Assembly (NCBI GenBank): GCA_963931495.1
Contig: OZ007020.1
Span: 360,001-392,000, forward strand
DNA: 32,000 nt
Origin: an uncultured Alphaproteobacteria bacterium
GTDB lineage: Bacteria; Pseudomonadota; Alphaproteobacteria; Rs-D84
Direction of reading: 5' to 3'
Shown: positions 10,753 through 30,773 of the stretch, one piece after another
Layout of the letters: each line of letters opens with the position of its first letter
Numbering within the stretch: position 1 is the first letter of the stretch
The notes under the pieces: model-generated
What the model saw: the letters and a program-made list of their open reading frames with translations, nothing else
Databases searched by the model: none
What the model was told of the DNA's origin: nothing
Translations under genes and position numbers: made by a program

Positions 10753-10777
10753 AATCCCGCAATATGCGGGATTTTTT
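10751..10777. terminator. Bidirectional rho-independent terminator
   Basis: aaaatcccgc-aatat-gcgggatttttt. It is shared by the + strand fragment and the convergent plsC, whose stop overlaps the T-run. Confidence 0.8.
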
Positions 10778-11483
10778 ATGCACTGTGGCGGTTGATGGCC
10801 GCAGATATTTCGTCCAATGATGCGTTACAAGGTAACATGGGTTCAAACCATACATTTGCCGTGCCTGGGCGCATTTTTCCACGCTTTGGCCAGTACAGTC
10901 CCGTATCTGTTCCAACCGGTAATATTGGTAATTTTAATTCATGGGCCAGAAATAACAAACCGCGTTTTAATTTTACTTTTTGTCCCGGCTTTGCACGTGT
11001 GCCTTCGGGGAATATTATCAGTACCATGCCGTCCATAATCTTTTTTGCCACGGCGTTTGTTAATTTATGCATGTTTGTTGCACCACGTGCACGATTTACC
11101 GGCTGTAACCCCATGCGCCAAAATGCCCATCCGTAAATCGGAATCCACAATAATTCGCGCTTTATTATAAAAAATGCATGTGGCAATTTGGTTGTTAATA
11201 TCGCAACTTCCAGTATGGACATGTGTTTTGCGGCAACAATCGCTTTGCCATCCAGACGTATGTTTCCGTTTGGGGTCATTGGGATACCATTTTCTTCGTT
11301 TGGTGGAAAATGCAATGTGTACTTTATCCCAGCGACCAATCGGGCAATGCCCAGCACACCGCGCGCGCATGTGCGTATTAAAAAACGTATTAATGATTTG
11401 GATATTAACCCAATTAACAAAATCGGTGACCATAAAACAAAATACAGTCCCAGTGTAATTTTGAAAAGAATTGTTCTGAACAT
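10776..11483 (-). CDS. plsC: 1-acyl-sn-glycerol-3-phosphate acyltransferase
   Basis: AAKHMSILEVAIL (HX4D box with Glu in place of Asp), FPEGTR and an N-terminal TM helix. The start at 11483 (MFRTILFK) is preferred, and the listed 11537 would overlap the upstream gene by 32 nt. Confidence 0.8.
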   Translation of the reverse strand: MFRTILFKITLGLYFVLWSPILLIGLISKSLIRFLIRTCARGVLGIARLVAGIKYTLHFPPNEENGIPMTPNGNIRLDGKAIVAAKHMSILEVAILTTKLPHAFFIIKRELLWIPIYGWAFWRMGLQPVNRARGATNMHKLTNAVAKKIMDGMVLIIFPEGTRAKPGQKVKLKRGLLFLAHELKLPILPVGTDTGLYWPKRGKMRPGTANVWFEPMLPCNASLDEISAAINRHSA

Positions 11484-11505
11484 TACTGTTTTTTCCTTTT
11501 GATTA

Positions 11506-12015
11506 CTATCGTTCTTTGATTCCGCAAAGTGTTGCAATGTATTTTATATATTCTGTGGCCCATCTTTCAAGTCTTTTTGCAGGCGGCATCCCAGATAATG
11601 GTACCGGGCATGCGATTATTTCTGAATCTGGAATTTCATGTTGTATCAAGTGACGCGCGCGATTCATGTGGTCTTCGGTTGTAATTAAAACGATCCTGTC
11701 CAGTCCAGTGCGTGTCGCAATTTTTTTTATTGCCAATGCATTTTGATATGTTGATTCTGATTCGGATTCAATCGTTACACGACGGTTTATTTCATATGAA
11801 CCATCATCGCCCGCACCAATGATATACAGGTCTGTATTTGGATATGTGCGTAATTTACGCATTGCAAACGGAATGCGGCGCATGTCACCGGTTAATACAA
11901 AAATACTGTCGTCTGGCAATATTTCGTTACACTGTGACGGTGTAGAAAACTTAAACGCCATTCCACCAATCGCAACGCATGTCAGAAGTAATAAAGACGA
12001 TGTTAATAATCTCAT
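11506..12015 (-). CDS. DUF218 / YdcF-ElyC-like protein
   Basis: N-terminal TM segment. IFVLTGDMRRIPFAMRKL..LYIIGAG and VLITTEDHMNRARH follow the DUF218 pattern. The start overlaps the ftsX stop by 4 nt. Confidence 0.65.
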   Translation of the reverse strand: MRLLTSSLLLLTCVAIGGMAFKFSTPSQCNEILPDDSIFVLTGDMRRIPFAMRKLRTYPNTDLYIIGAGDDGSYEINRRVTIESESESTYQNALAIKKIATRTGLDRIVLITTEDHMNRARHLIQHEIPDSEIIACPVPLSGMPPAKRLERWATEYIKYIATLCGIKER

Positions 12016-14581: not shown

Positions 14582-16399
14582 ATGAAAAACACGTTTGGCA
14601 TTTCAACATTAGCAATCACATTGGCCATAGGGGCATTTGTGTGTGACGCAAATGCGGCGGCAACTGTTCGGGCATTGGGGGGCAGTGGAACGTATTCCAG
14701 TGCATCCAGTGCATCGTCTGGTTCGTCGGCCACAACACGGGGCAGTTCGGTCAGTGTTGCACCGGTGGCCAGTTCTGGGTCGTCGGGCGTCGCGGCAACC
14801 GGTGGTGGAACAACCACGGGGCGGGTTTCAACAATGCCACGTCTGTCGTTGGGCAGTTATTTGACCGGTGCAATTAATTCCAGTGGCGGAATGCTGCGGC
14901 CGGTGGTGTCGGGTGATGATTCTTCGTCGTCTGGTTCGGGGTCTGGGTCAACAGGTGGTAATATGACCCCCGGGGCATCCGCGGAAATTATCAAGGAAAT
15001 TGACCGGTTGCATTCAGATGTGGAAAGTTTGCGCGCATCAGATGAAAGTCTGTTGGAAAGCATGGATGCCAAGCAGGATGTTTTGGTTCCGACCGAAGAT
15101 GGGTATGTTGTTATTGACAATAATGAAATCTTTTTGGACGTTGAAAATTTAAGTAATGCATTAGAAGAACTGGTTGATGATGGTCGTGAAGTAGAAATTG
15201 ATTATGATGGCGAATATGTTGTTTGGCGTTATGTCGGTGATGCAGTGTGGAATAATTTGATATCCAAGGAAGATATTACCGGACCCCAAGGACCCGAAGG
15301 ACCCCAAGGTCCCCAGGGCGAGGCCGCCAATCTGGACGCATATTCAACAACAGAACAGATGAATTTTGCAATTGCAAATGCAATTGGTGCGCTGGCTGAA
15401 ATATACGCAACGAAAACAGAATTAACAAAGTATCCGACGTCTGATACTGTGGCGGCAACATACGCGACCAAGGCGGAATTGGCGAAATATCCAACCGCGG
15501 ATACGGTTGTTGCAACCTATGCAACCAAGGAAGAGTTAAAGAACTATCCCACGTCTGAAACAGTATCGGCAACATATGCAACAAAAACAGAGTTGGCGAC
15601 CAAGGCAACGACCGAGGCACTGGAACGTGGATTGGCGGCCAAGGCAGATGCCGCGGCATTGGATAACTATGTTAAAACAGGAACACTGACCCAGTATTAT
15701 TATGACAAGGCCGGGGTTGATAATCGTATATCTGAAATTGTGTCGGGGGATTTAAGTACTGCGTTGACACAATATGTTAAAACAGAAGATATGAATACGG
15801 CATTGGCGGGCAAGGTTGATAACGAAGATATGGTCAACTATGCAACGGTTGCAACGGTTGATACCAAGGCGGATAAAACAGCGGTGGAATCGTTGGCACT
15901 GACGGTTGCAGATGTTGATACAGTCGCAACATCGGCGGCCCAGGGTGTTGATACGGTGTCTGATTTGGTGGATGAGGTTATTGGGCATGTAAAACAGAAT
16001 AAAACGGCAATTGGAAATATGCAGACTGTCGTAGGGGCGGGGGAATTGTCAACCGAAGCGCGAACAATCGTGGGGGCCATCAATGAAATAACAGGTCGGG
16101 TGGACGATTTACCAACACAGAGCAATTTCCAAGAAGTTAATCAAGCTATCACCAGCATAGAAAATGCATTGGAAACCAAGGTTGAAACGACCGAATTAAA
16201 TGAAATCGCCTTTACCGGCCAGATTACAAATGAAAATGTGGCGGAAAATGCGGGGATTTCACGTATTAAATTATCATCGGATGTTCAAGATTCTTTGGAT
16301 CGTGCCGATGAAGCGGTGGTTGTTGATGGTATCGGTTCAAATCGTATCTTGGGAACAGACGACGCCGGTCAAGAAACGTGGTACGAAATTGTTATGTAA
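14582..16399 (+). CDS. Secreted tail-fibre-like / collagen-like repeat protein (fibre array gene 1)
   Basis: Signal peptide ..AFVCDANA-AA, then a Ser/Gly-rich linker. WRYVGDAVWNNL is followed by GPQGPEGPQGPQGEA. Three YPTxDTVxATYATKxEL repeats, heptad-like A/T/K/D-rich stalk, IVGAINEI box, C-terminal GTDDAGQETWYEIVM. Confidence 0.8.
   Translation: MKNTFGISTLAITLAIGAFVCDANAAATVRALGGSGTYSSASSASSGSSATTRGSSVSVAPVASSGSSGVAATGGGTTTGRVSTMPRLSLGSYLTGAINSSGGMLRPVVSGDDSSSSGSGSGSTGGNMTPGASAEIIKEIDRLHSDVESLRASDESLLESMDAKQDVLVPTEDGYVVIDNNEIFLDVENLSNALEELVDDGREVEIDYDGEYVVWRYVGDAVWNNLISKEDITGPQGPEGPQGPQGEAANLDAYSTTEQMNFAIANAIGALAEIYATKTELTKYPTSDTVAATYATKAELAKYPTADTVVATYATKEELKNYPTSETVSATYATKTELATKATTEALERGLAAKADAAALDNYVKTGTLTQYYYDKAGVDNRISEIVSGDLSTALTQYVKTEDMNTALAGKVDNEDMVNYATVATVDTKADKTAVESLALTVADVDTVATSAAQGVDTVSDLVDEVIGHVKQNKTAIGNMQTVVGAGELSTEARTIVGAINEITGRVDDLPTQSNFQEVNQAITSIENALETKVETTELNEIAFTGQITNENVAENAGISRIKLSSDVQDSLDRADEAVVVDGIGSNRILGTDDAGQETWYEIVM
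15281..15325 (+). repeat. Collagen-like run, five G-X-Y triplets
   Basis: gga ccc caa gga ccc gaa gga ccc caa ggt ccc cag ggc gag gcc translates to GPQ GPE GPQ GPQ GEA. Confidence 0.9.
15428..15598 (+). repeat. Three tandem 57-nt (19-aa) coding repeats
   Basis: KYPTSDTVAATYATKAELA / KYPTADTVVATYATKEELK / NYPTSETVSATYATKTELA. The units are diverged at synonymous sites. Confidence 0.9.
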
Positions 16400-16420
16400 C
16401 AGAGCAGAATGGGAACGTAA

Positions 16421-17584
16421 ATGAAAAATAAAAAAATTGTTTTTTGTGGATTTGCGGCGACATTACTGATGGCGGGTACCGCGAATGCGGCGGTGAAAAT
16501 TGCCAGCCAAGAATACGTTGATCGTGTTGATAATGTTATCGCGGAAAGCGTTGATTCTGTTCAGACCCAGGTTACAGAATTGGATACCGTTGTTAATGAC
16601 CCGGATACAGGGCTGGTTAGTGGGGTTGCGGATTTACAATCCCAGATTTCGGGCAAGCAAGATGTTGCGAATTTAACCCAGACCATAAATGATGAATCCC
16701 AGGAAACACAATATCCATCGGCGGCGGCGGTTAATACGGCAATCAAAGATGCAACAACAGGACTGGTTGGCAGCGAAGATTTAGAAGATTTGGCCGGTGA
16801 TGTAAATGCGCTGAACACAAATGTTATCCAGTTGCAATTTGATGTAAAGTCAAAACAGGATTCTTTGAATGATAATCAAATGAATGCGGTGAATTCTGGG
16901 ATTACTGCGGACAAGGTTACACAGTATGATGAATATGCAACCCAGATTGCGGCCAAGCCAGACGCAGCATCGTTGGCAACAGTGGCAACAACAGGATCAT
17001 ATAATGATTTGAAAGATGCGCCGGCACCGATTGTCGTTGATGCGACGTTAAGTGCAGAAAGTACAAATCCGGTTCAAAATAAAGTTATTAATGCCGCATT
17101 GGCAACCAAGGCCAGTACCCAGGATGTTTCTGATATCGCCGAAGATGTGACGATATTGGAATATCTGGTTAATAACGAAGATACAGGCTTGTCGGCCCAG
17201 GTTGCAGATATTGCTACCGCGGTTGAAACAGCGCAATCGGGTGTTGATTCGTTGACACAAACAGTCGGTAATGCCGAAGGTGGACTGGTCAAAGATGTTA
17301 CAGATTTGCAAGGCGATATGTCTGGCAAGCAAGATGTGGCAAGTCGTGAAAATACAATCACTGATGATGATACAAAATATCCATCATCTGGGGCGGTGTA
17401 CGATGCGTTGGCAACCAAGGCTGATGTTGATGCAACGTATACCAAAGAAGAAACAGACAACCAAATCACTACATTGGCAATACCACGGCCAAGTGATGAA
17501 TGTATGGCATCGTCAGGGGTGTGTGTGTTGTCGGTAACCAGTTCTGGTGACTTTGCATGGGTTAATGTGGCGTATCCAGATTAA
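16421..17584 (+). CDS. Secreted tail-fibre-like protein (fibre array gene 2)
   Basis: Signal peptide ..MAGTANA-AVKIASQEYVDRVDNV. Two YPSxxAV boxes (TQYPSAAAVNTAI, TKYPSSGAVYDALATKAD). VATTGSYNDLKDAP. C-terminal PRPSDECMASSGVCVLSVTSSGDFAWVNV. Confidence 0.8.
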   Translation: MKNKKIVFCGFAATLLMAGTANAAVKIASQEYVDRVDNVIAESVDSVQTQVTELDTVVNDPDTGLVSGVADLQSQISGKQDVANLTQTINDESQETQYPSAAAVNTAIKDATTGLVGSEDLEDLAGDVNALNTNVIQLQFDVKSKQDSLNDNQMNAVNSGITADKVTQYDEYATQIAAKPDAASLATVATTGSYNDLKDAPAPIVVDATLSAESTNPVQNKVINAALATKASTQDVSDIAEDVTILEYLVNNEDTGLSAQVADIATAVETAQSGVDSLTQTVGNAEGGLVKDVTDLQGDMSGKQDVASRENTITDDDTKYPSSGAVYDALATKADVDATYTKEETDNQITTLAIPRPSDECMASSGVCVLSVTSSGDFAWVNVAYPD

Positions 17585-17642
17585 TTTGGCTGGGGCAAAA
17601 CAAAGAGATATAAAGAGAAAAAAATAAAACAGGAGAAAACAA

Positions 17643-18917
17643 ATGAAAAAATTAACCGCAGGTATATTTGCAACCTTATTAGCTGTTGTGTCGGTTGGTG
17701 CCGCACGCGCTGATATCGCGTCCAGCCAATATGTTGATGACAAGGTTGATACCGTTGAAACATCTGTAACAACATTGTCTGGACGGGTTGATACCGCCGA
17801 AGAGGGAATTGAAACATTGGGAACAAAATTGGATGCCAAGTTGGATTCTGCAACAGCGGCCAGCACGTATGCAACCCAATCAGCATTAACAAGTGGTTTG
17901 GCGAACAAGCAAGATAAAGCACTGATTACATCAGCAGAATATGCGGAACATATATCCAGTGAAACAGGTTATCCATCTGTGGCGGCAGTAGAAGCGGCAA
18001 TTGATGCGGCAACCGATGGGGTGGTTACCGATGTGTCGGACAAGGTTGATATTGCCCAGGGCGCTGGTGCCGCGAACAAGGCTGTTATTACTGGGGCGGA
18101 TGGTAATATTACAACTGGTGAAGTTACCAGCGGCATGATTGCAGATGGTACAATCGTTAATGCAGATATTTCCGCATCGGCGGCCATTGAGGCATCAAAA
18201 ATTACAGGTCTGGGTGGTTTGGCCAGTCAAGATACTGTTGGTGCCGGTGATATTGAAGCGGGCGCAATCGTTAATGCAGATATTTCCGCGTCGGCAGCCA
18301 TTGATCAATCAAAAATTAATGGATTAGAAGCATCGTTGGGTGCAAAAGAAAATGTTGCTAATCGTGTTACAACGACAACATGGAATGCAAACAAGAACAG
18401 TGATGAAATGTATCCGACAGCGGGTGCGGTCAATGCCGCAATTACAACCGCAACGTCTGGTATTACAACAGATATATCTGAATTGACGACCCAGGTTGAA
18501 GAAAATACCCAGGGTATCGCTGATAACGCAAGTGATATATCAACCAATACATCGGCGATTGGTACTTTGACCAGTTTGACAACCACAGAACAAGGAAACT
18601 TGGTTGGTGCGATTAATGAAGTGGCCGGTGAGGTTGCGGATGTTTCGGGTGATATTGCATTAAAACAGAATATCACAGATAACACATTCACAACAGCGGC
18701 GAAGACGGTACCGGGTGCTGTTAATGAATTGAAAACCGCGGTTGATGCGGCCGCAGATGCGGCAGAAGCAGCCCAGACGGCGGCCGATGCCAAGATCCCA
18801 ATGCCAAGTGGCGAATGCAGCAACCCAACAAACAAATGCGTATTAGTATCAAATGGTACAAGTTCGTTTGAATGGGAAGTTGTTGCCCGTGGTGTGTCAC
18901 CGGATGTTGGTGAATAA
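17643..18917 (+). CDS. Secreted tail-fibre-like protein (fibre array gene 3)
   Basis: SD aggag. Signal peptide ..VSVGAARA-DIASSQYVDDKVDTVETSV. YPSVAAVEAAI and YPTAGAVNAAI boxes. Duplicated IVNADISASAAIxxSKIxGL module. LVGAINEV. C-terminal PMPSGECSNPTNKCVLVSNGTSSFEWEVV. Confidence 0.8.
   Translation: MKKLTAGIFATLLAVVSVGAARADIASSQYVDDKVDTVETSVTTLSGRVDTAEEGIETLGTKLDAKLDSATAASTYATQSALTSGLANKQDKALITSAEYAEHISSETGYPSVAAVEAAIDAATDGVVTDVSDKVDIAQGAGAANKAVITGADGNITTGEVTSGMIADGTIVNADISASAAIEASKITGLGGLASQDTVGAGDIEAGAIVNADISASAAIDQSKINGLEASLGAKENVANRVTTTTWNANKNSDEMYPTAGAVNAAITTATSGITTDISELTTQVEENTQGIADNASDISTNTSAIGTLTSLTTTEQGNLVGAINEVAGEVADVSGDIALKQNITDNTFTTAAKTVPGAVNELKTAVDAAADAAEAAQTAADAKIPMPSGECSNPTNKCVLVSNGTSSFEWEVVARGVSPDVGE
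18135..18330 (+). repeat. Internal duplication with 114-nt (38-aa) period in fibre gene 3
   Basis: The copies starting at 18153 and 18267 share 36 of their first 38 nt (atcgttaatgcagatatttccgc[a/g]tcggc[g/a]gccattga). Confidence 0.85.
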
Positions 18918-18933
18918 TTTTACCGATAAGATT

Positions 18934-18964
18934 CTGTGTGTGATGCGTGGTGCGTCACACACAG
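18934..18964 (+). repeat. Strong hairpin built on (TG)n/(CA)n between fibre genes 3 and 4
   Basis: ctgtgtgtgatgc..gcgtcacacacag gives about 13 bp including G-U pairs, with a small loop. No U-tract follows. Confidence 0.6.
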
Positions 18965-19038
18965 AAGGATAAAAATGGGTATAAGTGGTGCGCAACGTAA
19001 CGGTAATGTGAACATTTAGTTTTGTTTATGTAAATGTG

Positions 19039-20073
19039 ATGCTGAAAGTTAAAAATATTTTTGCTGTTTCTGTTATCGCGATAATGACAGTTGGCGGGGC
19101 GTTGGCTGATATTGCATCTGTAACGTATGTTGATGATAAGTTCAGCACCGTTGAAACCGATGTTACGGGAAATGTCACAGGGGACGGGAATGTTGTAACC
19201 ACAATTTCAGCCAGTGGTAACACGGTTACCGCGACCAAGGGAATAACCGCCGAAGAAATTAAAAACAAGGTTGAAAGCATTCGTGATTCTGGGACGGCAA
19301 CAAACACGGCGTATCCATCAGAACGTGCGGTTGCAATTGCGTTGGCGGTCAAGGCAGATTCCAGCACTGTTTCCGCAATGCAAAGTGATATAGATGCCGC
19401 CGGTGCCGCCGCCGCCGAGGCCAAAGAAGCGGCCAGCAGTGCAGAAAGTGCAGCAACAGAGGCATCAGAAGCCGCCGCCGCCGCCACCGCAGCGGTCGCG
19501 AACAAGGTTACGGCGAATGCCGCAATCACGGGTGGCACAGCAACAAAAATTACATTTGATGCCAAAGGATTGGTTACGGGTGGGGCCAATTTGACCGCTG
19601 ATGATATTCCAACGGTTCCAAGTACAAAAGTTTCGGGGCTGTCAACAGTCGCAACGTCGGGGTCGTATGATGATTTGACGGACAAGCCGTCTATCCCAGC
19701 GGCATATACTTTGCCGGCGGCGACATCGGCGGCGTTGGGCGGTGTTAAATCGGGCGGTGATATTTCTGTTTCCGCAGATGGTATTGTGACAGTCAGCAAT
19801 GCTGCATCGGCGGACAAGGCGACAACGGCCACAACCGCAACGAATGCAACCAATGCAACAAATGCGACGAATGATGCCGGCGGTAATAATATTGCGAGTA
19901 CGTATGCAACCAAGTCGCAAATAACGGCATTGAACAGTTCATCCACAGGTACGGGTGCCGTTGTGACCGCTGTGTCACAATCAGGTGGCAAGGTTTCAGT
20001 GACCAAGGGCAATGTTCAAATTCCTGTGGGCAGTGCGACCGGAACATCGTATGCCACGATATGGGTTGAATAG
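19039..20073 (+). CDS. Secreted tail-fibre-like protein (fibre array gene 4)
   Basis: Signal peptide ..MTVGGALA-DIASVTYVDDKFSTVETDV. YPSERAVAIALAVKAD, an Ala/Glu-rich coiled segment, VATSGSYDDLTDKPSIP, LPAATSAALGGVKSGGDISVSADGIVTV, ATNATNATNATN, C-terminal GTSYATIWVE. Start is GTG 19036 or ATG 19039, and the SD is weak. Confidence 0.75.
   Translation: MLKVKNIFAVSVIAIMTVGGALADIASVTYVDDKFSTVETDVTGNVTGDGNVVTTISASGNTVTATKGITAEEIKNKVESIRDSGTATNTAYPSERAVAIALAVKADSSTVSAMQSDIDAAGAAAAEAKEAASSAESAATEASEAAAAATAAVANKVTANAAITGGTATKITFDAKGLVTGGANLTADDIPTVPSTKVSGLSTVATSGSYDDLTDKPSIPAAYTLPAATSAALGGVKSGGDISVSADGIVTVSNAASADKATTATTATNATNATNATNDAGGNNIASTYATKSQITALNSSSTGTGAVVTAVSQSGGKVSVTKGNVQIPVGSATGTSYATIWVE
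19820..19873 (+). repeat. Low-complexity 9-nt coding repeats (ATT ATT ATN ATN ATN ATN)
   Basis: gcgacaacg gccacaacc gcaacgaat gcaaccaat gcaacaaat gcgacgaat. Confidence 0.8.
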
Positions 20074-20759: not shown

Positions 20760-21635
20760 TCAACTGCCGGTGGTATCACTGCCGGTGAATTTATTTGGTA
20801 TAACATAGCATTCTGTTATAGAAACAGTGCCAGGGGTTGCAGAACCGCCAACACCGATAGAGCCGTCGTTTATTTCGCCCGGGCCGGCGGTCGTTTGGGT
20901 ACCAGATGAATGCGATGGGCATGGGGTGCAATATGATACTATGCTGCCGGCGAAATTTGCATTAGGTACCCCGTAAAATCCCTTGGGGCATCGCGTTTGT
21001 TTATTCATGTACGTCATGCATCTGTTGCCACTGCATGCTTTCTTTGTGCGGACCTGGACCGCGTTTGAACCACTGTATGCCATTTCCCATGCTGTTGGAA
21101 CGCATGTTGATTCATCGCATGTGCCACCAGTGGTGCCACCACCACCAGTATTGCTGGCCAAAGAATCACTCATACATTTATAATAGGTTACATTACTGCA
21201 TCCCAAAATAGTGTGTTTTACGCGTGTGTATCCAGATTTACATCCGCTGGCGGATTTAATATAGTATTGAATACCATCTGCATCAAAACATATGTTTGTG
21301 GTACCTGTGGCCCCAGGATCGCCCATCACAGATGCCGTTGAACCAAAGTCTATGAATTCCGTGCGTTCATATATATTGGTGCATCCCGCAGACAGGCATT
21401 GAGCATATCCACCGCCGCCGCCACCACCACCACCGGAATCGCCACAGCGACGACAACATGCGGTGTTTACAATGTCAAGGCATGTCATGCATCCACTGAT
21501 GCATTCGGATACGTTATCCCAATCTAAGTATGATTCAGGAATGTTGGCACTGAATGCAGGCGTATTGAAACACAGGCAACATAACACAGAAAACACCCCG
21601 CCATGCCAAATGGCGGCATTTGATTTTATATACAT
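20760..21635 (-). CDS. Secreted cysteine-rich repeat protein, family member 2 (with Gly9 tract)
   Basis: ATG at 21635 follows gggaga. MYIKSNAAIWHGGVFSVLCCLCFNTPAFSA is signal-like. Cys-rich motifs include CISGCMTCLD, CCRRCGDSGGGGGGGGGYAQC and RCPKGFYG. The C-terminal module is CTPCPSHSSGT...SITECYVIPNKFTGSDTTGS. Confidence 0.75.
   Translation of the reverse strand: MYIKSNAAIWHGGVFSVLCCLCFNTPAFSANIPESYLDWDNVSECISGCMTCLDIVNTACCRRCGDSGGGGGGGGGYAQCLSAGCTNIYERTEFIDFGSTASVMGDPGATGTTNICFDADGIQYYIKSASGCKSGYTRVKHTILGCSNVTYYKCMSDSLASNTGGGGTTGGTCDESTCVPTAWEMAYSGSNAVQVRTKKACSGNRCMTYMNKQTRCPKGFYGVPNANFAGSIVSYCTPCPSHSSGTQTTAGPGEINDGSIGVGGSATPGTVSITECYVIPNKFTGSDTTGS
21408..21434 (-). repeat. (GGN)9 trinucleotide tract encoding Gly9
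   Basis: The plus strand reads tcc acc gcc gcc gcc acc acc acc acc. Confidence 0.9.
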
Positions 21636-21657
21636 ATTTTTGTCTCCCACTTTTGTT

Positions 21658-21687
21658 GTTGTGAATGCCGAATTTGTCATTCACAAC
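21658..21687 (-). promoter_or_regulatory. Perfect 10-bp palindrome at the transcript start of the Cys-rich gene (operator or 5' hairpin)
   Basis: gttgtgaatg (21658-21667) and cattcacaac (21678-21687) with a 10-nt spacer. It lies between the predicted -10 and the SD. Confidence 0.55.
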
Positions 21688-22778: not shown

Positions 22779-22807
22779 TTGCAAGTTCGTATATACTGGT
22801 GTATTAT
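22779..22807 (+). promoter_or_regulatory. Putative lepA promoter (TTGCAA-17 nt-TATTAT)
   Basis: TTGCAA at 22779-22784 and TATTAT at 22802-22807. The listed TTG start at 22807 overlaps the -10. Confidence 0.5.
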
Positions 22808-22830
22808 TGCCGCATAACGCGCGGTATAGT

Positions 22831-24627
22831 ATGAATCAAAAGTATATCAGAAATTTTGCAATCGTTGCACATATTGACCATGGTAAGTCAACGCTGTCTG
22901 ACCGGTTGATTGAATATACCGGCGGATTGCAATCGCGCGAAATGAAGGCCCAGGTACTGGATTCTATGGACATTGAACGTGAACGTGGAATAACAATCAA
23001 GGCGCAAACAGTGCGATTAAATTATACGGCCAAGGATGGACAGGTTTATCAATTAAATCTGATGGATACCCCCGGACATGTTGACTTTTCATATGAAGTA
23101 TCACGCAGTTTGGCCGCATGTGAAGGCGCATTGATTTTGGTTGATGCAACCCAGGGGGTCCAGGCGCAAACACTGGCAAATGCATATTTGGCGTTGGATA
23201 ACGATTTGGAAATGTTGCCGGTTCTGAACAAGATTGACTTGCCGTCCAGTGATGTTGATGCCGCACGCCAGCAGATTGCCGATGCGATTGGATTGGACGC
23301 GTCAAATGCGATTTGTGTGTCGGGAAAGACAGGTGCCGGCGTTCCAGAATTGTTGGAAGAAATTGTTCATAAATTGCCCGCCCCAGACGGTGATGAAAAT
23401 GCCCCGGCGCGCGCGCTGTTGGTGGATTCGTGGTATGATTCTTATCTGGGGGTTGTGATTCTGGTGCGGGTTGTTGATGGGCAATTGGCGCGTGGTCAGA
23501 AAATTCGCTTTATGGCAACAGGTGCAGAATATGTGATTGAAAAAATCGGATGTTTTACACCAAAAATGATTGATACAGATGCGTTGCTGACCGGTGAAAT
23601 CGGATTTATTATCACAGGAATGAAAACAATCCATGATTGCAAGGTCGGCGATACAATTATTGATGCGCGTGCGGGTGCGGCGTGCGAACCGTTGCCGGGT
23701 TTCAAGCCGTCTGTGCCGGTTGTTTTTTCGTCGTTTTTCCCAGTATCGGCGGATGATTATCCGAATTTGCGCGATGGCGCAGAAAAATTGGCGTTGAATG
23801 ACGCGTCGTTCGTGTTTACAACAGAAAAGTCATCTGCACTGGGGTTTGGATTGCGGTGTGGGTTCTTGGGGTTGTTGCATATGGAAATTATCAGTGAACG
23901 TTTGCGCCGTGAATTTGGATTGAACTTGATTAATACGGTGCCAAGCGTGTTGTATAAAATTCATATGCGTGATGGCAGTATCGTTGATCTGGAAAATCCC
24001 GCAGATATGCCAGATGTTACAAAAATTGAATCTGTTGATGAACCGTGGGTGCGGGCAACAATTATGATGCCTGATAAGTATATGGGCGGAATTATGTCAC
24101 TGTGTTCCGAACGGCGCGGGGTGCAAGAAAATATCTCTTATGTTGGTAATCGCGCCGTGTTGGTATACCAGTTGCCATTGGCGGAAATTGTGTTTGATTT
24201 TTATGACAGGGTAAAATCTATATCGTCGGGCTATGCATCGTTTGACTATGTCGTTCAGGGATATCAGCCGTCTGATTTGGTCAAAGTGTCCATATTGGTT
24301 AATGAAGAAAATGTAGAACCACTGTCTTTTATGTGTCATCGCAGCGCCGCAGAAAAACGGGGGCGCCAAATTGTTGAAAAATTAAAAGATTTAATCCCAA
24401 GACATCAATTCAAAATTCCGTTACAGGCCGCAATCGGTGGTAAAATTATCGCACGTGAAACAATTGCGGCATATCGCAAGGATGTAACAGCAAAATGCTA
24501 TGGCGGGGATATTACGCGCAAGCGCAAATTGCTGGAAAAGCAAAAGGAGGGAAAAAAACGTATGCGGACATTCGGTAATGTGGAAATACCCCAGTCTGCA
24601 TTCATAAACGCATTGAAAGTAAACTGA
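22831..24627 (+). CDS. lepA: Elongation factor 4 (translational GTPase LepA)
   Basis: [29 protein letters not shown] and the LepA-specific C-terminal region ..[22 protein letters not shown]. Start at the ATG at 22831. Confidence 0.95.
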
Positions 24628-24644: not shown

Positions 24645-25061
24645 ATGTCTGTGTGGACGTATATACTTAAAACACCAATAAAAGTAATTCGGGCGGATTT
24701 CGCAGAATATAGAAAACTGAATCAAGACATTGCGCGTGTGGGACGTAATATGCAGAATGCACGTGTTAATATGATTGTGCGTATGGGGAAAAAATGGTGC
24801 GTGGTTCCATCGGCACGTGCGTATGCGGGCTGTGTGCAAAAATCTTGGACCCCAGAGTTAGATATTCAAATGGGAATTAATGTATTGCGTGAATATGAAT
24901 GTGAATGTCCGTTGTTCGTTCCAAACTGGTGGCCGTGTAATCAAGTAAACTGTCTGTATCACCAGTTTAACAACAAGTATTTTGAAAATAAAAATATTTA
25001 TGAAGTTCTGAAACGTAATAAGTCTGGGTTTTGGAAAGAAAAGTTTAACAAGGTACGATAA
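24645..25061 (+). CDS. Small Cys-box protein, paralogue 1 of 3 (unknown family)
   Basis: SD aagga sits 17 nt after the lepA stop. N-terminal WTYILKTPIKVIRADFAEYRKL. C-terminal PCNQVNCLYHQFNNKYF...FWKEKFNKVR. Confidence 0.6.
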   Translation: MSVWTYILKTPIKVIRADFAEYRKLNQDIARVGRNMQNARVNMIVRMGKKWCVVPSARAYAGCVQKSWTPELDIQMGINVLREYECECPLFVPNWWPCNQVNCLYHQFNNKYFENKNIYEVLKRNKSGFWKEKFNKVR

Positions 25062-25078
25062 ATGGTGGGGTTGTTGTT

Positions 25079-25360
25079 ATGTCTGGGTGGAAATATTTAA
25101 TTAAAACTTCGCGGAAAACGTTAAAATCAGATATCACAGAATATAAAAAACTGTGTGAACGTCTTGTGGATGCCAGGCGACAATATAATTTATCACGTGC
25201 ATCCTTTACAGATGTTGGATGTACGCGTTATCCATGCAAAGACATATATTGCAAATATTATGAAGTTAACCGAAATTATGGCGAAACGTTGCATATGATG
25301 CATATGTTGGAAAAACAGCGCAAGATTTACTGGGTGCAAAAGTTTGCAAACTGTCGGTAA
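25079..25360 (+). CDS. Small Cys-box protein, paralogue 2 of 3 (unknown family)
   Basis: WKYLIKTSRKTLKSDITEYKKL, PCKDIYCKYYEVNRNYG and YWVQKFANCR follow the same layout as the 24645 and 25695 genes. Confidence 0.55.
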   Translation: MSGWKYLIKTSRKTLKSDITEYKKLCERLVDARRQYNLSRASFTDVGCTRYPCKDIYCKYYEVNRNYGETLHMMHMLEKQRKIYWVQKFANCR

Positions 25361-25380
25361 AAAAAAACAAGGTGAATGTT

Positions 25381-25677
25381 ATGAATAAATTTAACGTTGT
25401 AAAAAAAACTGTTTCTGATTGTTTTAATATACGGCCGGGTGTAATCAATAAAACAACTCATCTGGAAAATGATTTAGAATTGGACAGTCTGGACAGAATT
25501 ATATTACAGGCGAAAATAGAATCAAAATGTAAAAATTTTTATCCAAATGTTAAAAACTGGGTGGAAAATGTTCAAACGGTCGGTGATATCGCAGATTATG
25601 TTGATATGTGCAATCATGTGAATTGTAAAAAATTCGGACTTATTGGGCTTATCGGCCGTTTCGGAAAATCAATGTAA
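25381..25677 (+). CDS. Divergent acyl-carrier-protein-like protein (second ACP)
   Basis: SD aaggtg lies 7 nt before the ATG at 25381. VKKTVSDCFNI..INKTTHLENDLELDSLDRIILQAKIE aligns with the ACP helix I-II region, including the DSL phosphopantetheine site. There is an extra Cys-containing C-terminal tail. Confidence 0.6.
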   Translation: MNKFNVVKKTVSDCFNIRPGVINKTTHLENDLELDSLDRIILQAKIESKCKNFYPNVKNWVENVQTVGDIADYVDMCNHVNCKKFGLIGLIGRFGKSM

Positions 25678-25694
25678 ACAAGGGAAATAAAAAT

Positions 25695-26084
25695 ATGAAA
25701 ATAATTCAATATATGTTAACAACACCAATAAAACAACAACGTGCGGACCTTGCGGAATGGCGTATATTACAATACAAATGCGCGTCACTGCATTTGGATA
25801 AATTTTGCGCATATGATTCGCTGATTCGGTTTGTTAACGAAAATCAAAATCCGCATGATATACGGGCGTGTGTAAAGCGGCCTGAAAATTGGCAACAGTT
25901 CATGTCCGTCCCAGACGATTCGTTTTGTAAAAAATTTAATCCAAATAATATGATGGGGGCGTGCGATGAACAAAATTGTCCTTTCTATCAGCGCAATAAT
26001 GCATTCTTTAATATTTTGAAACGGTATGAAAGCGCGATTACAGCACGGCGTGATTTTTGGGATAATAAAATGAATCAGCGTTAG
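25695..26084 (+). CDS. Small Cys-box protein, paralogue 3 of 3 (unknown family)
   Basis: IQYMLTTPIKQQRADLAEWRIL, ACDEQNCPFYQRNNAFF and FWDNKMNQR. SD aaggga. Confidence 0.6.
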   Translation: MKIIQYMLTTPIKQQRADLAEWRILQYKCASLHLDKFCAYDSLIRFVNENQNPHDIRACVKRPENWQQFMSVPDDSFCKKFNPNNMMGACDEQNCPFYQRNNAFFNILKRYESAITARRDFWDNKMNQR

Positions 26085-26107
26085 TCTTTCTGGACGGGGG
26101 GAATATC

Positions 26108-27106
26108 ATGGCACATCAATTCTTTTTTAATCCGTTTATATTGGATAACTTGCCGACACCAAGTGCGGGATTTGATGTGGTCCAGGATATATCTGAACCG
26201 CGTCTGCGTATGTATATCACCAGTCGCGGGATAAAAACATTCTTTGTGCGTAAACGTGTACATGGGCGGGACAAGCGTATAATAATTGGAAATTATCCGG
26301 ATATTGATGTTGAAACAGCACGTGGAATGGTGCCATCTGTGTTGGCGCGCGCAATGGAAAAACCACGCCGTCGCAATAAAAAAATTACAATGCGCAAATT
26401 TCTGGATATATATTTGACGAACCGAATTCGCAGAAACAGTTATTCGCGCGAAAAATTGGAACGCGCAATAAGACGGCATCTGTCACCACTGTTTGATATG
26501 CCATTGAATGAAATTTCAGATGCTGATATTGCCAATGTTATCATATGTATCCATGGCCCGGCCATCGCAGCCCGTATGCAGGATTTGTTACAAAGTGTTT
26601 ACAAGTATGCAATTGATAATGGGTATGCCAATGAAAATCCAGTTGCGAAATTACAGAAAATAAAGCCTGTGCGTCGTGTGCGGCCGTTGAATATGGCGGG
26701 GTTCCATCGGCTGGTGGGGGCAATAAAACGCGAACCTGTCCAGAATTTGCGCGCGGCGTTTTTAATGCTGGTGTACGGTTTCGCACCGAAATCACGTGTC
26801 TTTGCAATGCAATGGCGTGACCTGGATTTTAACCTTTATATGTGGAATGATTGGCCACTGTCTGATGCCGCGGTTGTTTTGTTACAGGATTTGCCGCAAA
26901 ATGGCCGTTGGGTATTTCCTGGACGGGGACGGGGGCATTTGACAGATCCGCGTGTCGCATGGCAGCGGATTGTGACCAAGGCCGGTATCCCAAATGTGAC
27001 AATGGACGATGTGCATAAATTCTTGATGCGACAATTGGTCTGGGCCCCAGACAAGGAAGATATTCGTGCAAATATGAATGATGTTTTGGTAAATGCGCTT
27101 GGTTGA
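26108..27106 (+). CDS. P4-type tyrosine-recombinase homologue, catalytically degenerate and C-terminally truncated
   Basis: N-terminal arm-binding (DUF4102-like) pattern ..RLRMYITSRGIKTFFVRKRVHGRDKRIIIGNYPDIDVETAR, then WRDLDF and VFPG. The HxLRRT box reads TMDDVHKF. The ORF stops at ..NALG, where LGH precedes the catalytic Tyr in intact enzymes. Confidence 0.65.
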   Translation: MAHQFFFNPFILDNLPTPSAGFDVVQDISEPRLRMYITSRGIKTFFVRKRVHGRDKRIIIGNYPDIDVETARGMVPSVLARAMEKPRRRNKKITMRKFLDIYLTNRIRRNSYSREKLERAIRRHLSPLFDMPLNEISDADIANVIICIHGPAIAARMQDLLQSVYKYAIDNGYANENPVAKLQKIKPVRRVRPLNMAGFHRLVGAIKREPVQNLRAAFLMLVYGFAPKSRVFAMQWRDLDFNLYMWNDWPLSDAAVVLLQDLPQNGRWVFPGRGRGHLTDPRVAWQRIVTKAGIPNVTMDDVHKFLMRQLVWAPDKEDIRANMNDVLVNALG

Positions 27107-27242
27107 TACATATATTTTTGCATTTGTCAAGTGTTTGTTATCGTTTGTTATAATTTCTTGACACTGTTTGCATAAAATGATAGTTTTAAGTAATGACGCC
27201 CGTGTTCGGGCCAAAAATTTAACAAGAATAAAGGATAAAAAT

Positions 27243-27476
27243 ATGACAACTTTTGAACGTGTAAAAAAAATTGTGTCTGAAAAATTGAGTATACCAGAAG
27301 CGCGAATTGAAGAAAATTCGTCTTTTGTAAATGATTTGGGCGCAGATTCTTTGGACGTCGTGGAATTTGTTATGGCCGTGGAACAGGAATTTGGTATTGA
27401 AATTCCAGATGATGCCGCAGCAAAATTAACAACTGTGGGCGAAGCGGTTAAGTATATTGATGCACATAAAAAATAA
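27243..27476 (+). CDS. acpP: Acyl carrier protein
   Basis: [15 protein letters not shown]...[30 protein letters not shown] is canonical AcpP. The ATG at 27243 follows aagga, and the listed 27168 start is an extension. Confidence 0.95.
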
Positions 27477-27613: not shown

Positions 27614-28867
27614 ATGAAAAGAGTTGTTATTACCGGCATGGGAATTGTATCACCGGTTGGAACAGGCGTTGAATATGCATGGAAAAATATTGTTAATGGT
27701 GTGTCTGGGGTGCGGAAAATTGATACATTTGATGCATCTGATTTGGCATCGCAAATTGCGGGATTACCGGTTGTGGGGACTGAACCAGGGCAATATAATC
27801 CAGATGCGGTTGTTGATGCGCGCGAACAGCGTAAAATGGATAAATGTATTATATACGGCGTTGTTGCCGCAGATGAAGCAATCAAAGATGCCGGATTGGC
27901 CGAATACGATGGGGACAAAACCAGAATGGGCGTTTCAATTGGTGCGGGCATTGGTGGATTGAATACGATTTATGATAACTGTGTTGAATTGTATGCAAAT
28001 GGTCCACGACACATCAGTCCGTTCTTTATCCCAAAGGTTATTATTAATATGACCGCGGGACATGTTTCTATTAAATATGGGCTGAAAGGACCGAATCTGT
28101 CTGTTGTTACAGCATGCGCGTCGGCGGCGCATTCAATTGGCGAAGCCGTGCGGTTAATCCAGCATGGTGATGCAGATGTTATGGTTGCTGGTGGTGCCGA
28201 AGGTGCGGTTGGTAAAATTGGCGTCGCAGGATTCTGTGCAATGAAGGCGTTGTCAACGCGTAATGATGAACCAGAAAAAGCATCGCGCCCATGGGATAAA
28301 GGTCGTGATGGATTTATCATTGCCGAAGGTGCCGGTATTTTGGTTCTGGAAGAATACGAACATGCGATTAAGCGTGGCGCAAAAATTTATGCCGAAGTTG
28401 CTGGGTACGGTTTATCCGGTGACGCATATCATATTACGGCACCGGCCCCAGGGGGCGAAGGTGGGCTGCGTGCAATGCAGGCGGCATTAAAAGATGCCGG
28501 AATGCAACCGGGCGACGTTGATTATATCAATGCACATGGAACATCAACAGGTTTGGGTGACATGGGTGAATTGGCCGCGGTAAAGACGTTGTTTGCCGGT
28601 GCCGATGTTTCAATGTCTTCAACAAAATCTATGACAGGTCACTTGTTGGGTGCCGCCGGTGGGATAGAGGCGATATTTTGTGTGATGGCAATTCGTGACG
28701 GAATTGTGCCACCAACAATTAATCTGGAAAATCCAGAAGAAGAGGTTGGTGATTTTGATTTAGTTCCGAATGTTGCCAAAAAACGCACGGTTGATGTTGC
28801 GTTAAGCAATTCGTTTGGTTTCGGTGGTACGAATGCCAGTTTGATTATTAAACGATTTGAAAAATAA
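27614..28867 (+). CDS. fabF: 3-oxoacyl-ACP synthase II
   Basis: VVITGMGIVSPVG, the active-site context VVTACASAAHSIG, INAHGTSTGLGD, HLLGAAG and NSFGFGGTNASL. Confidence 0.95.
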   Translation: MKRVVITGMGIVSPVGTGVEYAWKNIVNGVSGVRKIDTFDASDLASQIAGLPVVGTEPGQYNPDAVVDAREQRKMDKCIIYGVVAADEAIKDAGLAEYDGDKTRMGVSIGAGIGGLNTIYDNCVELYANGPRHISPFFIPKVIINMTAGHVSIKYGLKGPNLSVVTACASAAHSIGEAVRLIQHGDADVMVAGGAEGAVGKIGVAGFCAMKALSTRNDEPEKASRPWDKGRDGFIIAEGAGILVLEEYEHAIKRGAKIYAEVAGYGLSGDAYHITAPAPGGEGGLRAMQAALKDAGMQPGDVDYINAHGTSTGLGDMGELAAVKTLFAGADVSMSSTKSMTGHLLGAAGGIEAIFCVMAIRDGIVPPTINLENPEEEVGDFDLVPNVAKKRTVDVALSNSFGFGGTNASLIIKRFEK

Positions 28868-28870
28868 AAA

Positions 28871-28891
28871 ATGCCCCGAATGGGGCATTTC
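28871..28891 (+). terminator. Rho-independent terminator after fabF
   Basis: atgcccc-gaat-ggggcat followed by ttt. Confidence 0.7.
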
Positions 28892-28954: not shown

Positions 28955-28987
28955 AAAAAAAAAACGGGCAATGCCCGTTTTTTTATT
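28955..28987. terminator. Bidirectional A/T-flanked terminator hairpin
   Basis: aaaaaaaaaacggg-caatg-cccgttttttt, abutting the stop of the minus-strand synthetase gene. Confidence 0.7.
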
Positions 28988-30668
28988 ATTTGTCATCATC
29001 TTTGCCGAATCCAATCGTGCTTTTGATTGGTTCAATAATTGTGTTTTTGGCACTGTCCAGCGTGCGTATTAATGCACGACGAATTTTGCCACTGATTGTC
29101 ATCGGCAGACTGTCCACGAATTCAATTACACGTGGATATTTGTATGATGCAGTGCGACTGCGTACATGATCTTGTAATTGACGCACAAGAACATCTGTTC
29201 CTTGGAAATATTTATTCAGAACAATTGTCGCCTTGACCGCCATGCCACGTGATGGGTCGGGAATTCCAGTAACGGCAACTTCGCGGACGGCGGGATGTTC
29301 CAGCAGCACACTTTCAACCTCAAACGGGCTGACGCGATATCCAGACGTTTTGATTAAATCATCGTTCCGGCCAACAAACCAATAGTATCCATCGTTGTCG
29401 CGGTACGCCACGTCCCCAGTATGATAGAATCCATCACGAAATACCTGGTTCGTCAGTTTTTCGTTTTTATGATAACCCTGGAATAATCCCACAGGACGGC
29501 CATTTTTTAACGATACGCAGATTTCACCAACTGTACCATTCGGAACAGGGCGTCCGCCTTCGTCCAATAACTGAACATCCCAGCCCGCTGCCGGCATGCC
29601 CATGCTGCCCGGTTTGGGTTCAATCCATTGATTTGTAAACAGCATTATGCATGTTTCTGTTTGACCGAAACCTTCGTGTAATTTGATGTCTGTGGCCGAT
29701 TGAAAGCGTTCAAAAACTTCTGGATTTAACGCTTCGCCGGCAACGTCAGCCTTGGTCAATGCGGATACATCATAATGTGTGAAATCAGCGTGTATTAACA
29801 TTTTATATACAGTTGGGGGTGCACAAAATGATGTTATGTGGTTGTCTGACATCGCGGACAATAAATCATGTGCGGTCGCGATTCCGGAAAAGTCATATAC
29901 AAATACGGTCGCGCCCGCCAGCCATTGGCCGTACATTTTGCCCCATGAACATTTTGCCCATCCTGATTCAGACAATGTAAAATGAATGTCGCCATCATGC
30001 AGACGTTGCCAAAACACGGCGGTGTTTATATGCCCCAGCGGATATACGAAATTATGTGCAACCATTTTGGGTAAATCTGTGGTGCCACTGGTGAAATATA
30101 TTACCATCGTATCAGTGTTATTATTTGGGACACGTGCAAATTCAGACGGCATTGTTTCCAGTGCGCCATCAATATCTGGGGTTAATATTAATTTAACATC
30201 AGATGTGCCGATTGCCGTCTTGATTTCGTTTATAATGTGTCCATCGTCGTATGCAAAAATATATTTCGCGTCGGCCTGGCGAATGCGGTATTCAATATCT
30301 TCGGCCTTTAACTGATTCGTTGATGGAATTGGTATGATTCCAGCCTTGTGCATGGCCAACATTAAAATCCAATATTCCCAGCGACGACGCATGAACAGCA
30401 ATGCAGTGTCGCCACGGTTCATGCCAAGTGATGTTAAATAATTTGCCAGTGCGCCCGACATTAACGATAAATCACGAAATGTAAAACGTTTGATTTCCCC
30501 CGAATCGTCGGTCCACAATAATGCCAAATTATTCGGTGTTTCTGTTGCCAATACATCAATTACATCATATGCAAAATTAAAGTTTTCTGGAACAACAGGG
30601 GCGCCATTTTGGATATAGTCTTCGTAACTGTCAAATTTATCTTTTTTCAGGAATTTTGATGCAAACAT
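28986..30668 (-). CDS. AMP-forming acyl-CoA synthetase (medium-chain/ACSM-like adenylate-forming enzyme)
   Basis: YFTSGTTDLPKMVAH (AMP-binding P-loop), GFGQTE, YHTGD and GRNDDLIKTSGYRVSPFEVE..SGKIRR. The ATG at 30668 follows aaggt. The listed 30692 start sits only a few nt after a TATAAT. Confidence 0.85.
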   Translation of the reverse strand: MFASKFLKKDKFDSYEDYIQNGAPVVPENFNFAYDVIDVLATETPNNLALLWTDDSGEIKRFTFRDLSLMSGALANYLTSLGMNRGDTALLFMRRRWEYWILMLAMHKAGIIPIPSTNQLKAEDIEYRIRQADAKYIFAYDDGHIINEIKTAIGTSDVKLILTPDIDGALETMPSEFARVPNNNTDTMVIYFTSGTTDLPKMVAHNFVYPLGHINTAVFWQRLHDGDIHFTLSESGWAKCSWGKMYGQWLAGATVFVYDFSGIATAHDLLSAMSDNHITSFCAPPTVYKMLIHADFTHYDVSALTKADVAGEALNPEVFERFQSATDIKLHEGFGQTETCIMLFTNQWIEPKPGSMGMPAAGWDVQLLDEGGRPVPNGTVGEICVSLKNGRPVGLFQGYHKNEKLTNQVFRDGFYHTGDVAYRDNDGYYWFVGRNDDLIKTSGYRVSPFEVESVLLEHPAVREVAVTGIPDPSRGMAVKATIVLNKYFQGTDVLVRQLQDHVRSRTASYKYPRVIEFVDSLPMTISGKIRRALIRTLDSAKNTIIEPIKSTIGFGKDDDK

Positions 30669-30773
30669 ATTCTGGTTACCTTTTTTGTTCATACATTAAT
30701 AAATTATAAATAGCCGTATGCAAGTATTGCAGATTATTTTCACAAGTAAAACAAAAATAATGAATAAAAAAAG

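Follow-up and report, generated by a model that had tools for sequence, protein, structure and literature searches.

A fixed lepA-intL-acpP-fabF locus of the Rs-D84 gut lineage with a variable array of Cys-box genes and a putatively domesticated, non-catalytic integrase homologue

Variable arrays of small genes adjoining a tyrosine-recombinase gene are known from chromosomal integrons and from the rAID systems of gut Bacteroidales, which are recombinase-associated arrays of orphan immunity genes. An inactivated tyrosine-recombinase derivative that acts as a DNA target selector was described as TnsF in the Tn6022-like Tn7 transposons (PMC10293859). The locus described here lies in a stretch of 32,000 nt (OZ007020.1, positions 360,001-392,000; assembly GCA_963931495.1; uncultured Alphaproteobacteria bacterium, Rs-D84), which is called the window throughout. 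It was found to contain lepA followed by three paralogous genes of a small cysteine-bearing family (cb1, cb2 and cb3; the Cys-box family), an acyl carrier protein (ACP)-like gene (acpX) between the second and the third of them, and an integrase homologue (intL), with acpP and fabF downstream (Table 1). It resembles the rAID systems and chromosomal integrons in the variable array of small genes beside a tyrosine-recombinase gene, and rAID systems likewise occur in gut bacteria, whereas here the recombinase is predicted to be inactive, the recombinase gene follows the array in the same orientation, and a single protein family is encoded. An integron-like cassette array was rejected, as the spacers of ~17 nt are too short for attC, intL is predicted to be inactive and only one gene family is present.

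Across Rs-D84 the locus is a fixed, selected part of the chromosome and not a decaying mobile element, since intL has lost its catalytic residues and is nevertheless conserved in ~190 species. The source organism belongs to "Candidatus Enterousia" (order Rs-D84), a group of uncultured gut Alphaproteobacteria, and Rs-D84 is a widespread uncultured gut lineage of humans, poultry and ruminants. Its genomes are ~0.75-1.0 Mb in size, reportedly lack lipid, amino-acid and nucleotide biosynthesis, and probably belong to obligate symbionts or parasites living in a dense, phage-rich gut community (PMC12306168). With intL used as the anchor for locus collection, relatives were found in 190 species of GTDB, from which 80 loci were fetched (labelled L with a number; database protein clusters are labelled P with a number). 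The sources were all uncultured gut Alphaproteobacteria, many of them "Candidatus Enterousia", except for L081 (CAVGNU010000007.1), a contig labelled Bacteroides fragilis that contains a complete Rs-D84 locus (rbfA-lepA-7 Cys-box genes-intL-acpP-fabF) and is probably mis-binned or mislabelled.

The gene order rbfA-lepA-(array)-intL-acpP-fabF was found in 78/78 species with a locus spanning lepA to intL, and the genes were separated by a median intergenic gap of 17 nt (336 junctions). The array contained no gene in 6 of these species, one gene in 26, two in 16, three in 19, four in 6 and five to eight in 5. In the six species without an array, intL starts 18-28 nt after lepA; since intL directly follows lepA there, the backbone consists of lepA-intL-acpP-fabF, into which the Cys-box genes are inserted as a variable part. 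A word-indexed search recovered only seven Cys-box clusters, all of which sit in the lepA ... acpP context, and an HMMER scan of all 1.84 billion cluster representatives (50% identity, E<=1e-3) recovered 201, of which nearly all are 125-145 aa long and matched over their whole length. To the extent that these data show, the family is confined to the Rs-D84 gut lineage.

The intL product was found to match the Pfam families Arm-DNA-bind_3 (E=4.8e-5), Phage_int_SAM_3 (E=2.5e-5) and Phage_int_M (E=6.5e-7) as well as the PHROG_1 integrases (E=1.2e-27), and lambda Int matched the intL profile with E=1e-5. The catalytic domain PF00589 was not matched by intL even at E<=1; the three phage integrases that can be aligned to intL match it at E=1e-17 to 1e-32. 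When the catalytic positions were compared with lambda Int and these three PF00589-positive integrases, Arg I aligned to A226 or P227 of intL (R212 of lambda Int lies opposite the invariant P227), the beta-hairpin with the catalytic Lys was deleted (24-aa gap), box II HxxR read D-D-V-gap, and the C-terminal LGH...Y segment, which carries the His/Trp and the nucleophilic Tyr, was deleted (27-aa gap), with a Tyr present in the tail of none of the intL orthologues. All six recombinase catalytic residues are thus substituted or deleted, and the protein is predicted to be catalytically inactive.

The ratio of nonsynonymous to synonymous substitution rates (dN/dS) of intL was 0.06 at an unsaturated dS (0.65), compared with 0.07 for rbfA. 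The window protein was 62-80% identical to intL of the fetched loci, a level similar to that of rbfA and acpP, the length was kept at ~331-338 aa in loci with a readable start, and the gene persists in the six species without an array. Since the catalytic residues are gone while conservation and dN/dS are housekeeping-like, intL, which public records label "integrase family protein", is best described as a putatively domesticated, non-catalytic tyrosine-recombinase derivative and a core gene, not a pseudogene. The intL product can be aligned with P4/CP4-57-type integrases over the arm- and core-binding domains and the beginning of the catalytic domain, and differs from these in the loss of the six catalytic residues, the absence of att sites, the lack of mobility and the lineage-wide presence. 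By description, it resembles TnsF in being a recombinase scaffold without a catalytic site, apparently kept because it recognises or bends DNA. The two differ in that TnsF belongs to a mobile element, carries zinc fingers at its N terminus and cooperates with the Tn7 transposition machinery, whereas intL, a core gene of the chromosome, encodes a P4-type arm-binding domain and has no transposon partners. By this analogy, the most likely role of intL is that of a non-catalytic protein that binds or bends DNA in a sequence-specific manner.

The intergenic region between intL and acpP was found to be more conserved than the flanking coding DNA in an alignment of 82 loci. It contained the tandem promoter-like elements TTGTCA-17-TATAAT and TTGACA-17-TAGTTT and, upstream of acpP, the direct repeat TTTGTTAT-N2-TTTGTTAT (27134-27151); this repeat was present in 82/82 loci, as were the 8-mers TTTGTTAT and TTGTTATA. 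No second tandem repeat of TTTGTTAT was found in the window, where the tandem copy is unique, and a regulon for this repeat was set aside for the same reason. A leader hairpin GCCC(A)...(T)GGGC was replaced by GTCC...GGAC in L017 and L019, which is a compensatory change; RNAalifold returned no structure from the leader alignment, which is gappy, and no known RNA element (Rfam) was found in the block or in the acpP leader. The region could be a regulator site, possibly of intL, and to name the acpP promoter region, directly downstream, as a candidate target of intL is speculative.

The lipid context of acpP was also considered. The initial annotation had placed the block where fabD-fabG would be expected, a point that is moot as the lineage reportedly lacks lipid biosynthesis (PMC12306168), and none of the relatives examined was found to have a fabD or fabG domain within ~8 kb. 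Next to acpP-fabF lies the gene of an AMP-binding enzyme that may be an acyl-ACP or acyl-CoA synthetase (28986-30692, minus strand), and a PlsC-type acyltransferase is encoded at 10776-11537 (minus strand); given the reported lack of lipid biosynthesis, the two fit fatty-acid scavenging via ACP.

In the Cys-box family, the four cysteines C63, C88, C98 and C103 (cb1 numbering) were found to be invariant in 136 sequences with the spacing C-x24-C-x9-C-x4-C, followed by the presence of nearly invariant Y6, D18 and W130. The C..C-x4-C box noted in the initial annotation is present; as a family signature it gives way to the four cysteines, of which C88 is absent from cb2. Conservation peaks at both ends of the protein (residues 1-25 and the final 30) and in the Cys region, and variation, indels included, is greatest in residues 31-60 and 71-90. 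The AlphaFold2 (AF2) model of cb1 (pLDDT 93.4, pTM 0.81) has two helices (12-43 and 106-137), between which lie three beta strands and a Cys-rich loop. The proteins were uniformly basic (median isoelectric point (pI) 9.2, net charge +8), with the charge in the conserved terminal helices, in contrast to the acidic AcpP. With dN/dS of 0.07-0.44, the Cys-box open reading frames (ORFs) appear to be functional genes. The window cb2 lacks C88 and the beta region, its orthologues in L014, L008 and L020 are of 125-148 aa, and short forms like it recur in other species.

No common family was found for 136 members in Pfam or PHROGs, where only isolated single-member matches occurred (E>=6e-4), and the window Cys-box proteins had no match in NCBIfam or PADLOC. 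A Foldseek search of PDB and BFVD with the Cys-box model gave nothing significant; the best shapes were prefoldin and V-ATPase subunit D (E>=0.66, TM-scores 0.2-0.5), which share the order of a long helix, a beta element and a long helix, differ in having no cysteine cluster, and resemble the Cys-box in shape only. No relatives were found in IMG/VR, in the INPHARED phages or in PLSDB, and with no fold match in BFVD a phage or plasmid origin of the genes was rejected. On these searches and the model, the Cys-box appears to be a previously undescribed family of ~135 aa with a novel-looking fold and a new type of locus. Two side observations concern its borders. The database protein P0101 was found to join a cb2-like N-terminal part to an HNH endonuclease domain (PF01844, E=8e-7). 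ORFs of 150-178 aa outside the family's hidden Markov model lie inside the arrays of L053 (8727-9179), L054 (3496-4008), L065 (9081-9611), L076 (3545-4048) and L091 (4347-4883); they contain the pattern C-x-N-N ... H-C-x-G-C-P-x-F, have no Pfam match and may form a sister family.

The sole PDB sequence matches of the family were to the zinc subdomain of the single-stranded DNA (ssDNA)-binding protein gp32 of T4/RB69 (hmmsearch E=0.088). The alignment of ~47 columns covered three cysteines (C88, C98 and C103) and a Y..KN..Y...Y..LK...[FY]W motif; the two share C-x9/10-C-x2/4-C followed by Y-x2-K-N-x2-Y, then Y-x2-L-K and finally [FY]-W at the start of a helix. In hhalign the Cys-box profile reached a probability of 59.6% (P=8.9e-5) against the Zn-type subset of gp32 and 2% against the whole gp32 family. 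The zinc ligands of gp32 are His64, Cys77, Cys87 and Cys90; the Cys-box has no oligonucleotide-binding (OB) fold and another architecture, and its fourth ligand would be Cys63 instead of a His. The resemblance is taken as a structural analogy for a metal knuckle and not as established homology. A structural Zn(Cys)4 site is the most likely role of the four cysteines. The DksA/TraR-type regulators contain a CxxC-x17-CxxC zinc finger after a coiled-coil hairpin and are set apart, by description, by cysteine spacing and helix order.

The acpX product matched PF00550 with E=1.3e-3 (19.4 bits, cut-off 20.8) and the NCBIfam ACP models with E=7e-9, below their cut-offs, and was 31% identical to the neighbouring AcpP (E=7e-9). 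It also matched the phage-type ACP family phrog_5934. The DSL serine (LELDSLD) is present and is also kept in L014 and in the fusion proteins described below, and relatives and the fusions carry precomputed PF00550 matches. It resembles AcpP and the phage ACPs in the predicted four-helix layout and the serine, whereas its sub-cut-off scores, basic C-terminal tail, restriction to one clade, loss of the serine in one lineage and occasional fusion to a Cys-box set it apart from AcpP. An alternative GTG start at 25372 would give 101 aa; the relatives are called from the ATG at 25381.

Natural fusions of an ACP domain to a Cys-box were found in the species of L035, L043 and L044 and in the database clusters P0048 and P0089, where an acidic ACP domain with the DSL serine stands in place of the first 10-20 Cys-box residues, and the array of L041 encodes an ACP-ACP protein. 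The AF2 model of a fusion had a pLDDT of 92.1 and a pTM of 0.71. Because of these fusions, and by Rosetta-stone logic, the ACP and Cys-box domains probably work together, at least in the fusion-bearing clade. No synthase, ligase, transferase or phosphopantetheinyl transferase (PPTase) was found in the block or within ~8 kb.

The 171 array proteins fell into 110 clusters at >=40% identity, 75 of which were singletons. Paralogues inside one array were at most 48% identical (median 27%), and recent tandem duplication was rejected on these values as the source of the arrays. Between L017 and L019, neighbouring array genes differed in dS from 0.17 to >2, with flanks at 0.5-0.65. A second cb3 allele was found in three same-species assemblies (L003, L004 and L007), restricted to 25700-25999; the tract had 58-89% nucleotide identity with sharp edges in ~100% identical surroundings, a dS of ~1.0 and a dN/dS of 0.21, and the two alleles encode 129 aa and 122 aa. 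Positions 8250-8828 of L001, from another species (lepA ~83% identical in nucleotides), were 99-100% identical to window positions 24900-25473, from the middle of cb1 through cb2. The array consists of old allelic lineages shuffled by recombination and by gene gain and loss. Such diversity may be the signature of antagonistic or partner-specific interactions, and the locus could serve as a strain-typing marker for Enterousia populations.

Table 1. Features of the lepA-fabF region in the window (aa, amino acids)
Feature	Position	Strand	Description	Remarks
lepA	22807-24627	+	Elongation factor 4 (EF4), upstream anchor	Pfam GTP_EFTU, EFG_C, LepA_C; adjoins array or intL in 78 species
cb1	24645-25061	+	Full-length Cys-box, 138 aa, pI 9.6	Cys 63, 88, 98, 103
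cb2	25079-25360	+	Short Cys-box paralogue, 93 aa	Internally deleted; without beta region and C88 equivalent
acpX	25381-25677	+	Divergent ACP-like, 98 aa from ATG	DSL serine; basic C-terminal tail, pI 8.7
cb3	25695-26084	+	Full-length Cys-box, 129 aa, adjoins intL	5' 300 nt in two old alleles
intL	26108-27106	+	P4-type tyrosine-recombinase homologue, 332 aa, pI 10.4	Arm-/core-binding domains, no PF00589
intL-acpP intergenic	27107-27242	+	Ultra-conserved	Promoter-like elements, direct repeat, small leader hairpin
acpP	27243-27476	+		Pfam PP-binding E=7.5e-17; downstream anchor
fabF	27614-28867	+		Ketoacyl-synthase domains in orthologues; synteny in all loci examined

The initial annotation had described the block from cb1 to intL as five ORFs on the strand of lepA with short gaps, each preceded by its own Shine-Dalgarno (SD) sequence and without a terminator before the block ends, and this layout was borne out. 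The gaps lepA/cb1/cb2/acpX/cb3/intL are 17, 17, 11 (20 from the ATG at 25381), 17 and 23 nt, a purine-rich SD lies before each of the five ORFs, no strong intrinsic terminator was found inside the block, and convincing terminators follow only after fabF (28869-28890 and 28958-28984). Co-transcription of the array with lepA, which had also been proposed, is plausible because of the median gap of 17 nt and the lack of a strong internal terminator. The paralogy of the three small genes was confirmed (cb1/cb3 E=2e-10, cb1/cb2 E=1e-10, cb2/cb3 weaker at 0.022), and the ACP-like gene between the second and third of them, the lack of a recognised family and the dead integrase were likewise upheld by the results given above. 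The low GC content of the block (0.32-0.38, lepA 0.45, fabF 0.46) agrees with the annotation as an observation; as a mark of foreign DNA it fails because acpP is equally AT-rich (0.37), and composition does not mark the block as foreign. Recent horizontal import was rejected on the same ground, AT-richness being lineage-wide and acpP included, and only short, chance-level repeats were found in place of att-like direct repeats flanking the block.

Other genes were observed around the locus. An ORF of 306 aa (20760-21680, minus strand) that encodes many cysteines and ~11 glycines in a row has no Pfam match; every close relative has a 302-aa orthologue, and the product may be secreted or exposed at the surface. 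A series of four large ORFs (605, 387, 424 and 345 aa; 14582-20073, plus strand), likewise without Pfam matches, is kept in position in the relatives. Downstream of fabF, L017 and L018 were found to contain an insertion with a MvaI/BcnI restriction enzyme and an N6/N4 methyltransferase (L017 13634-15197), and L016 a small GIY-YIG ORF (14668-14907), which is a strain-specific insertion.

The explanation put forward here, tentatively and as a possible one, is a locus of two layers that differ in age and role, with a domesticated intL and a diverse array of Cys-box adaptors that dock an acidic partner. In this explanation, intL descends from a P4-type phage or island integrase; it has lost the catalytic apparatus while keeping the arm- and core-binding domains and is retained as a core gene, most likely for a non-catalytic DNA-binding or DNA-bending role by analogy with TnsF. 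Between lepA and intL lies an accessory array of 0-8 genes, probably co-transcribed, the products of which are modelled with conserved N- and C-terminal helices flanking a variable beta region with the four cysteines of the putative Zn(Cys)4 site. The conserved basic terminal helices may dock the acidic partner, which may be AcpX, AcpP or nucleic acid, because the charge sits there and because the fusions have an ACP domain in place of the first 10-20 residues; the variable beta region may supply specificity. Gene gain and loss together with recombination of old alleles keep the array diverse. A more specific form, a hypervariable locus of a new kind, the new-fold Zn(Cys)4 adaptors of which dock the ACP of the cell or a dedicated ACP-like paralogue by a conserved basic region and read variable targets with the rapidly diversifying beta region, forming a partner-interaction or immunity system of obligately dependent, genome-reduced gut symbionts beside a domesticated integrase acting as a DNA-binding regulator, is regarded as unlikely.

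Several points weigh against the two-layer explanation. The attachment Ser of acpX is replaced by Leu in L008 and L009, the stand-alone ACP-like gene was found only in the subclade of the window, >90% of the arrays have no ACP-like gene, and the window acpX product is itself basic (pI 8.7). The pTM of the fusion model, 0.71, is no proof of a defined interface between the ACP and Cys-box parts. The case for metal binding consists solely of the invariant cysteines and the borderline gp32 zinc-knuckle match. Values of dN/dS are <1 throughout, with no direct signal of positive selection, and the high divergence could come partly from weak constraint on small helical proteins. The cross-species mosaic of L001 is a single contig end, which could reflect recent inter-species recombination or an assembly chimera, and all sequences are from metagenome-assembled genomes or metagenomes.

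The initial annotation had taken the block for a fossilised integrative islet appended to lepA. In this model the integrase would be decaying and the cargo kept by chance. A catalytically dead integrase homologue and a block that is AT-richer than its neighbours would be expected from such an islet, and a phage or island origin in the distant past would fit the phrog_5934 match and the weak gp32-like zinc motif. The presence of the locus in 78/78 spanning species and of intL relatives in 190 GTDB species, the dN/dS of 0.06, the stable length of ~331-338 aa, the persistence of intL without an array, the absence of flanking att repeats and the equal AT-richness of acpP all argue against it; as an account of origin it may be right, as an account of present status it is not, and taken as a whole it is very unlikely. 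The small genes were also not found to be a retained static cargo, as they vary from 0 to 8 copies and form 110 clusters at 40% identity among 171 proteins. That they are non-functional, as decaying remnants or gene-calling artefacts in AT-rich DNA, can scarcely be credited: six species have no array and cb2 is internally deleted, as this view would have it, whereas dN/dS of 0.07-0.44, four cysteines invariant in 136 sequences, a confidently predicted common fold and intact ORFs with short spacers (median 17 nt) contradict it. The carrier-protein link of the initial annotation survives in the fusion proteins; its wider form, a general modification system, does not, since the ACP-like gene is confined to one subclade and its serine was lost in one lineage. 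Carrier-dependent biosynthesis or modification, with AcpX bearing a substrate and Cys-box proteins as enzymes or substrates, would agree with the DSL serine of the ACP-like gene inside the array and with the ACP-Cys-box and ACP-ACP fusions; it is highly improbable given the lack of any synthase, ligase, transferase or PPTase in the block or within ~8 kb, the absence of an ACP-like gene from >90% of arrays, the Leu at the attachment Ser in L008 and L009 and a Cys-box fold without a catalytic-looking match.

Two further explanations concern the partner of the Cys-box proteins. They may be zinc proteins that bind nucleic acid (ssDNA or RNA/rRNA), working with rbfA/lepA or as nucleoid or regulatory proteins, with the ACP fusions incidental. 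The median pI of 9.2 and net charge of +8, the PDB matches on the gp32 zinc subdomain with 60% in hhalign against Zn-type gp32, and the constant, tightly spaced position after rbfA-lepA are in favour of this role, which is nonetheless judged improbable on balance: the hhalign probability falls to 2% for the gp32 family as a whole, Foldseek returned neither an OB fold nor gp32, and housekeeping RNA-binding proteins are rarely so variable and dispensable (0-8 copies; 110 clusters for 171 proteins). A module for anti-phage or inter-bacterial conflict, with diversity kept by frequency-dependent selection and intL unrelated or regulatory, is considered a minor possibility as well. Copy-number variation, extreme diversity, coexisting old alleles, recombination tracts, the fusion of one family member to an HNH nuclease domain (P0101) and the dense, phage-rich gut community of the host would all suit it, whereas none of the five proteins matched PADLOC at E<=1, the locus contains no enzymatic effector, dN/dS is <1, no relatives were found in the phage, plasmid and IMG/VR collections, and the array is part of a housekeeping operon and not of a defence island.

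Paralogues and remnants of mobile elements are usually lost from symbionts and parasites with reduced genomes. That genomes of ~1 Mb keep up to 8 fast-diversifying paralogues together with an integrase homologue that has lost its chemistry and evolves at a housekeeping rate implies strong selection. The inactivation of a tyrosine recombinase with retained DNA binding is already known from TnsF; the Cys-box family and the architecture of the locus appear to be new. The natural ACP fusions provide a concrete lead toward ACP docking, and intL would represent a chromosomal, lineage-wide case of tyrosine-recombinase exaptation in bacteria.

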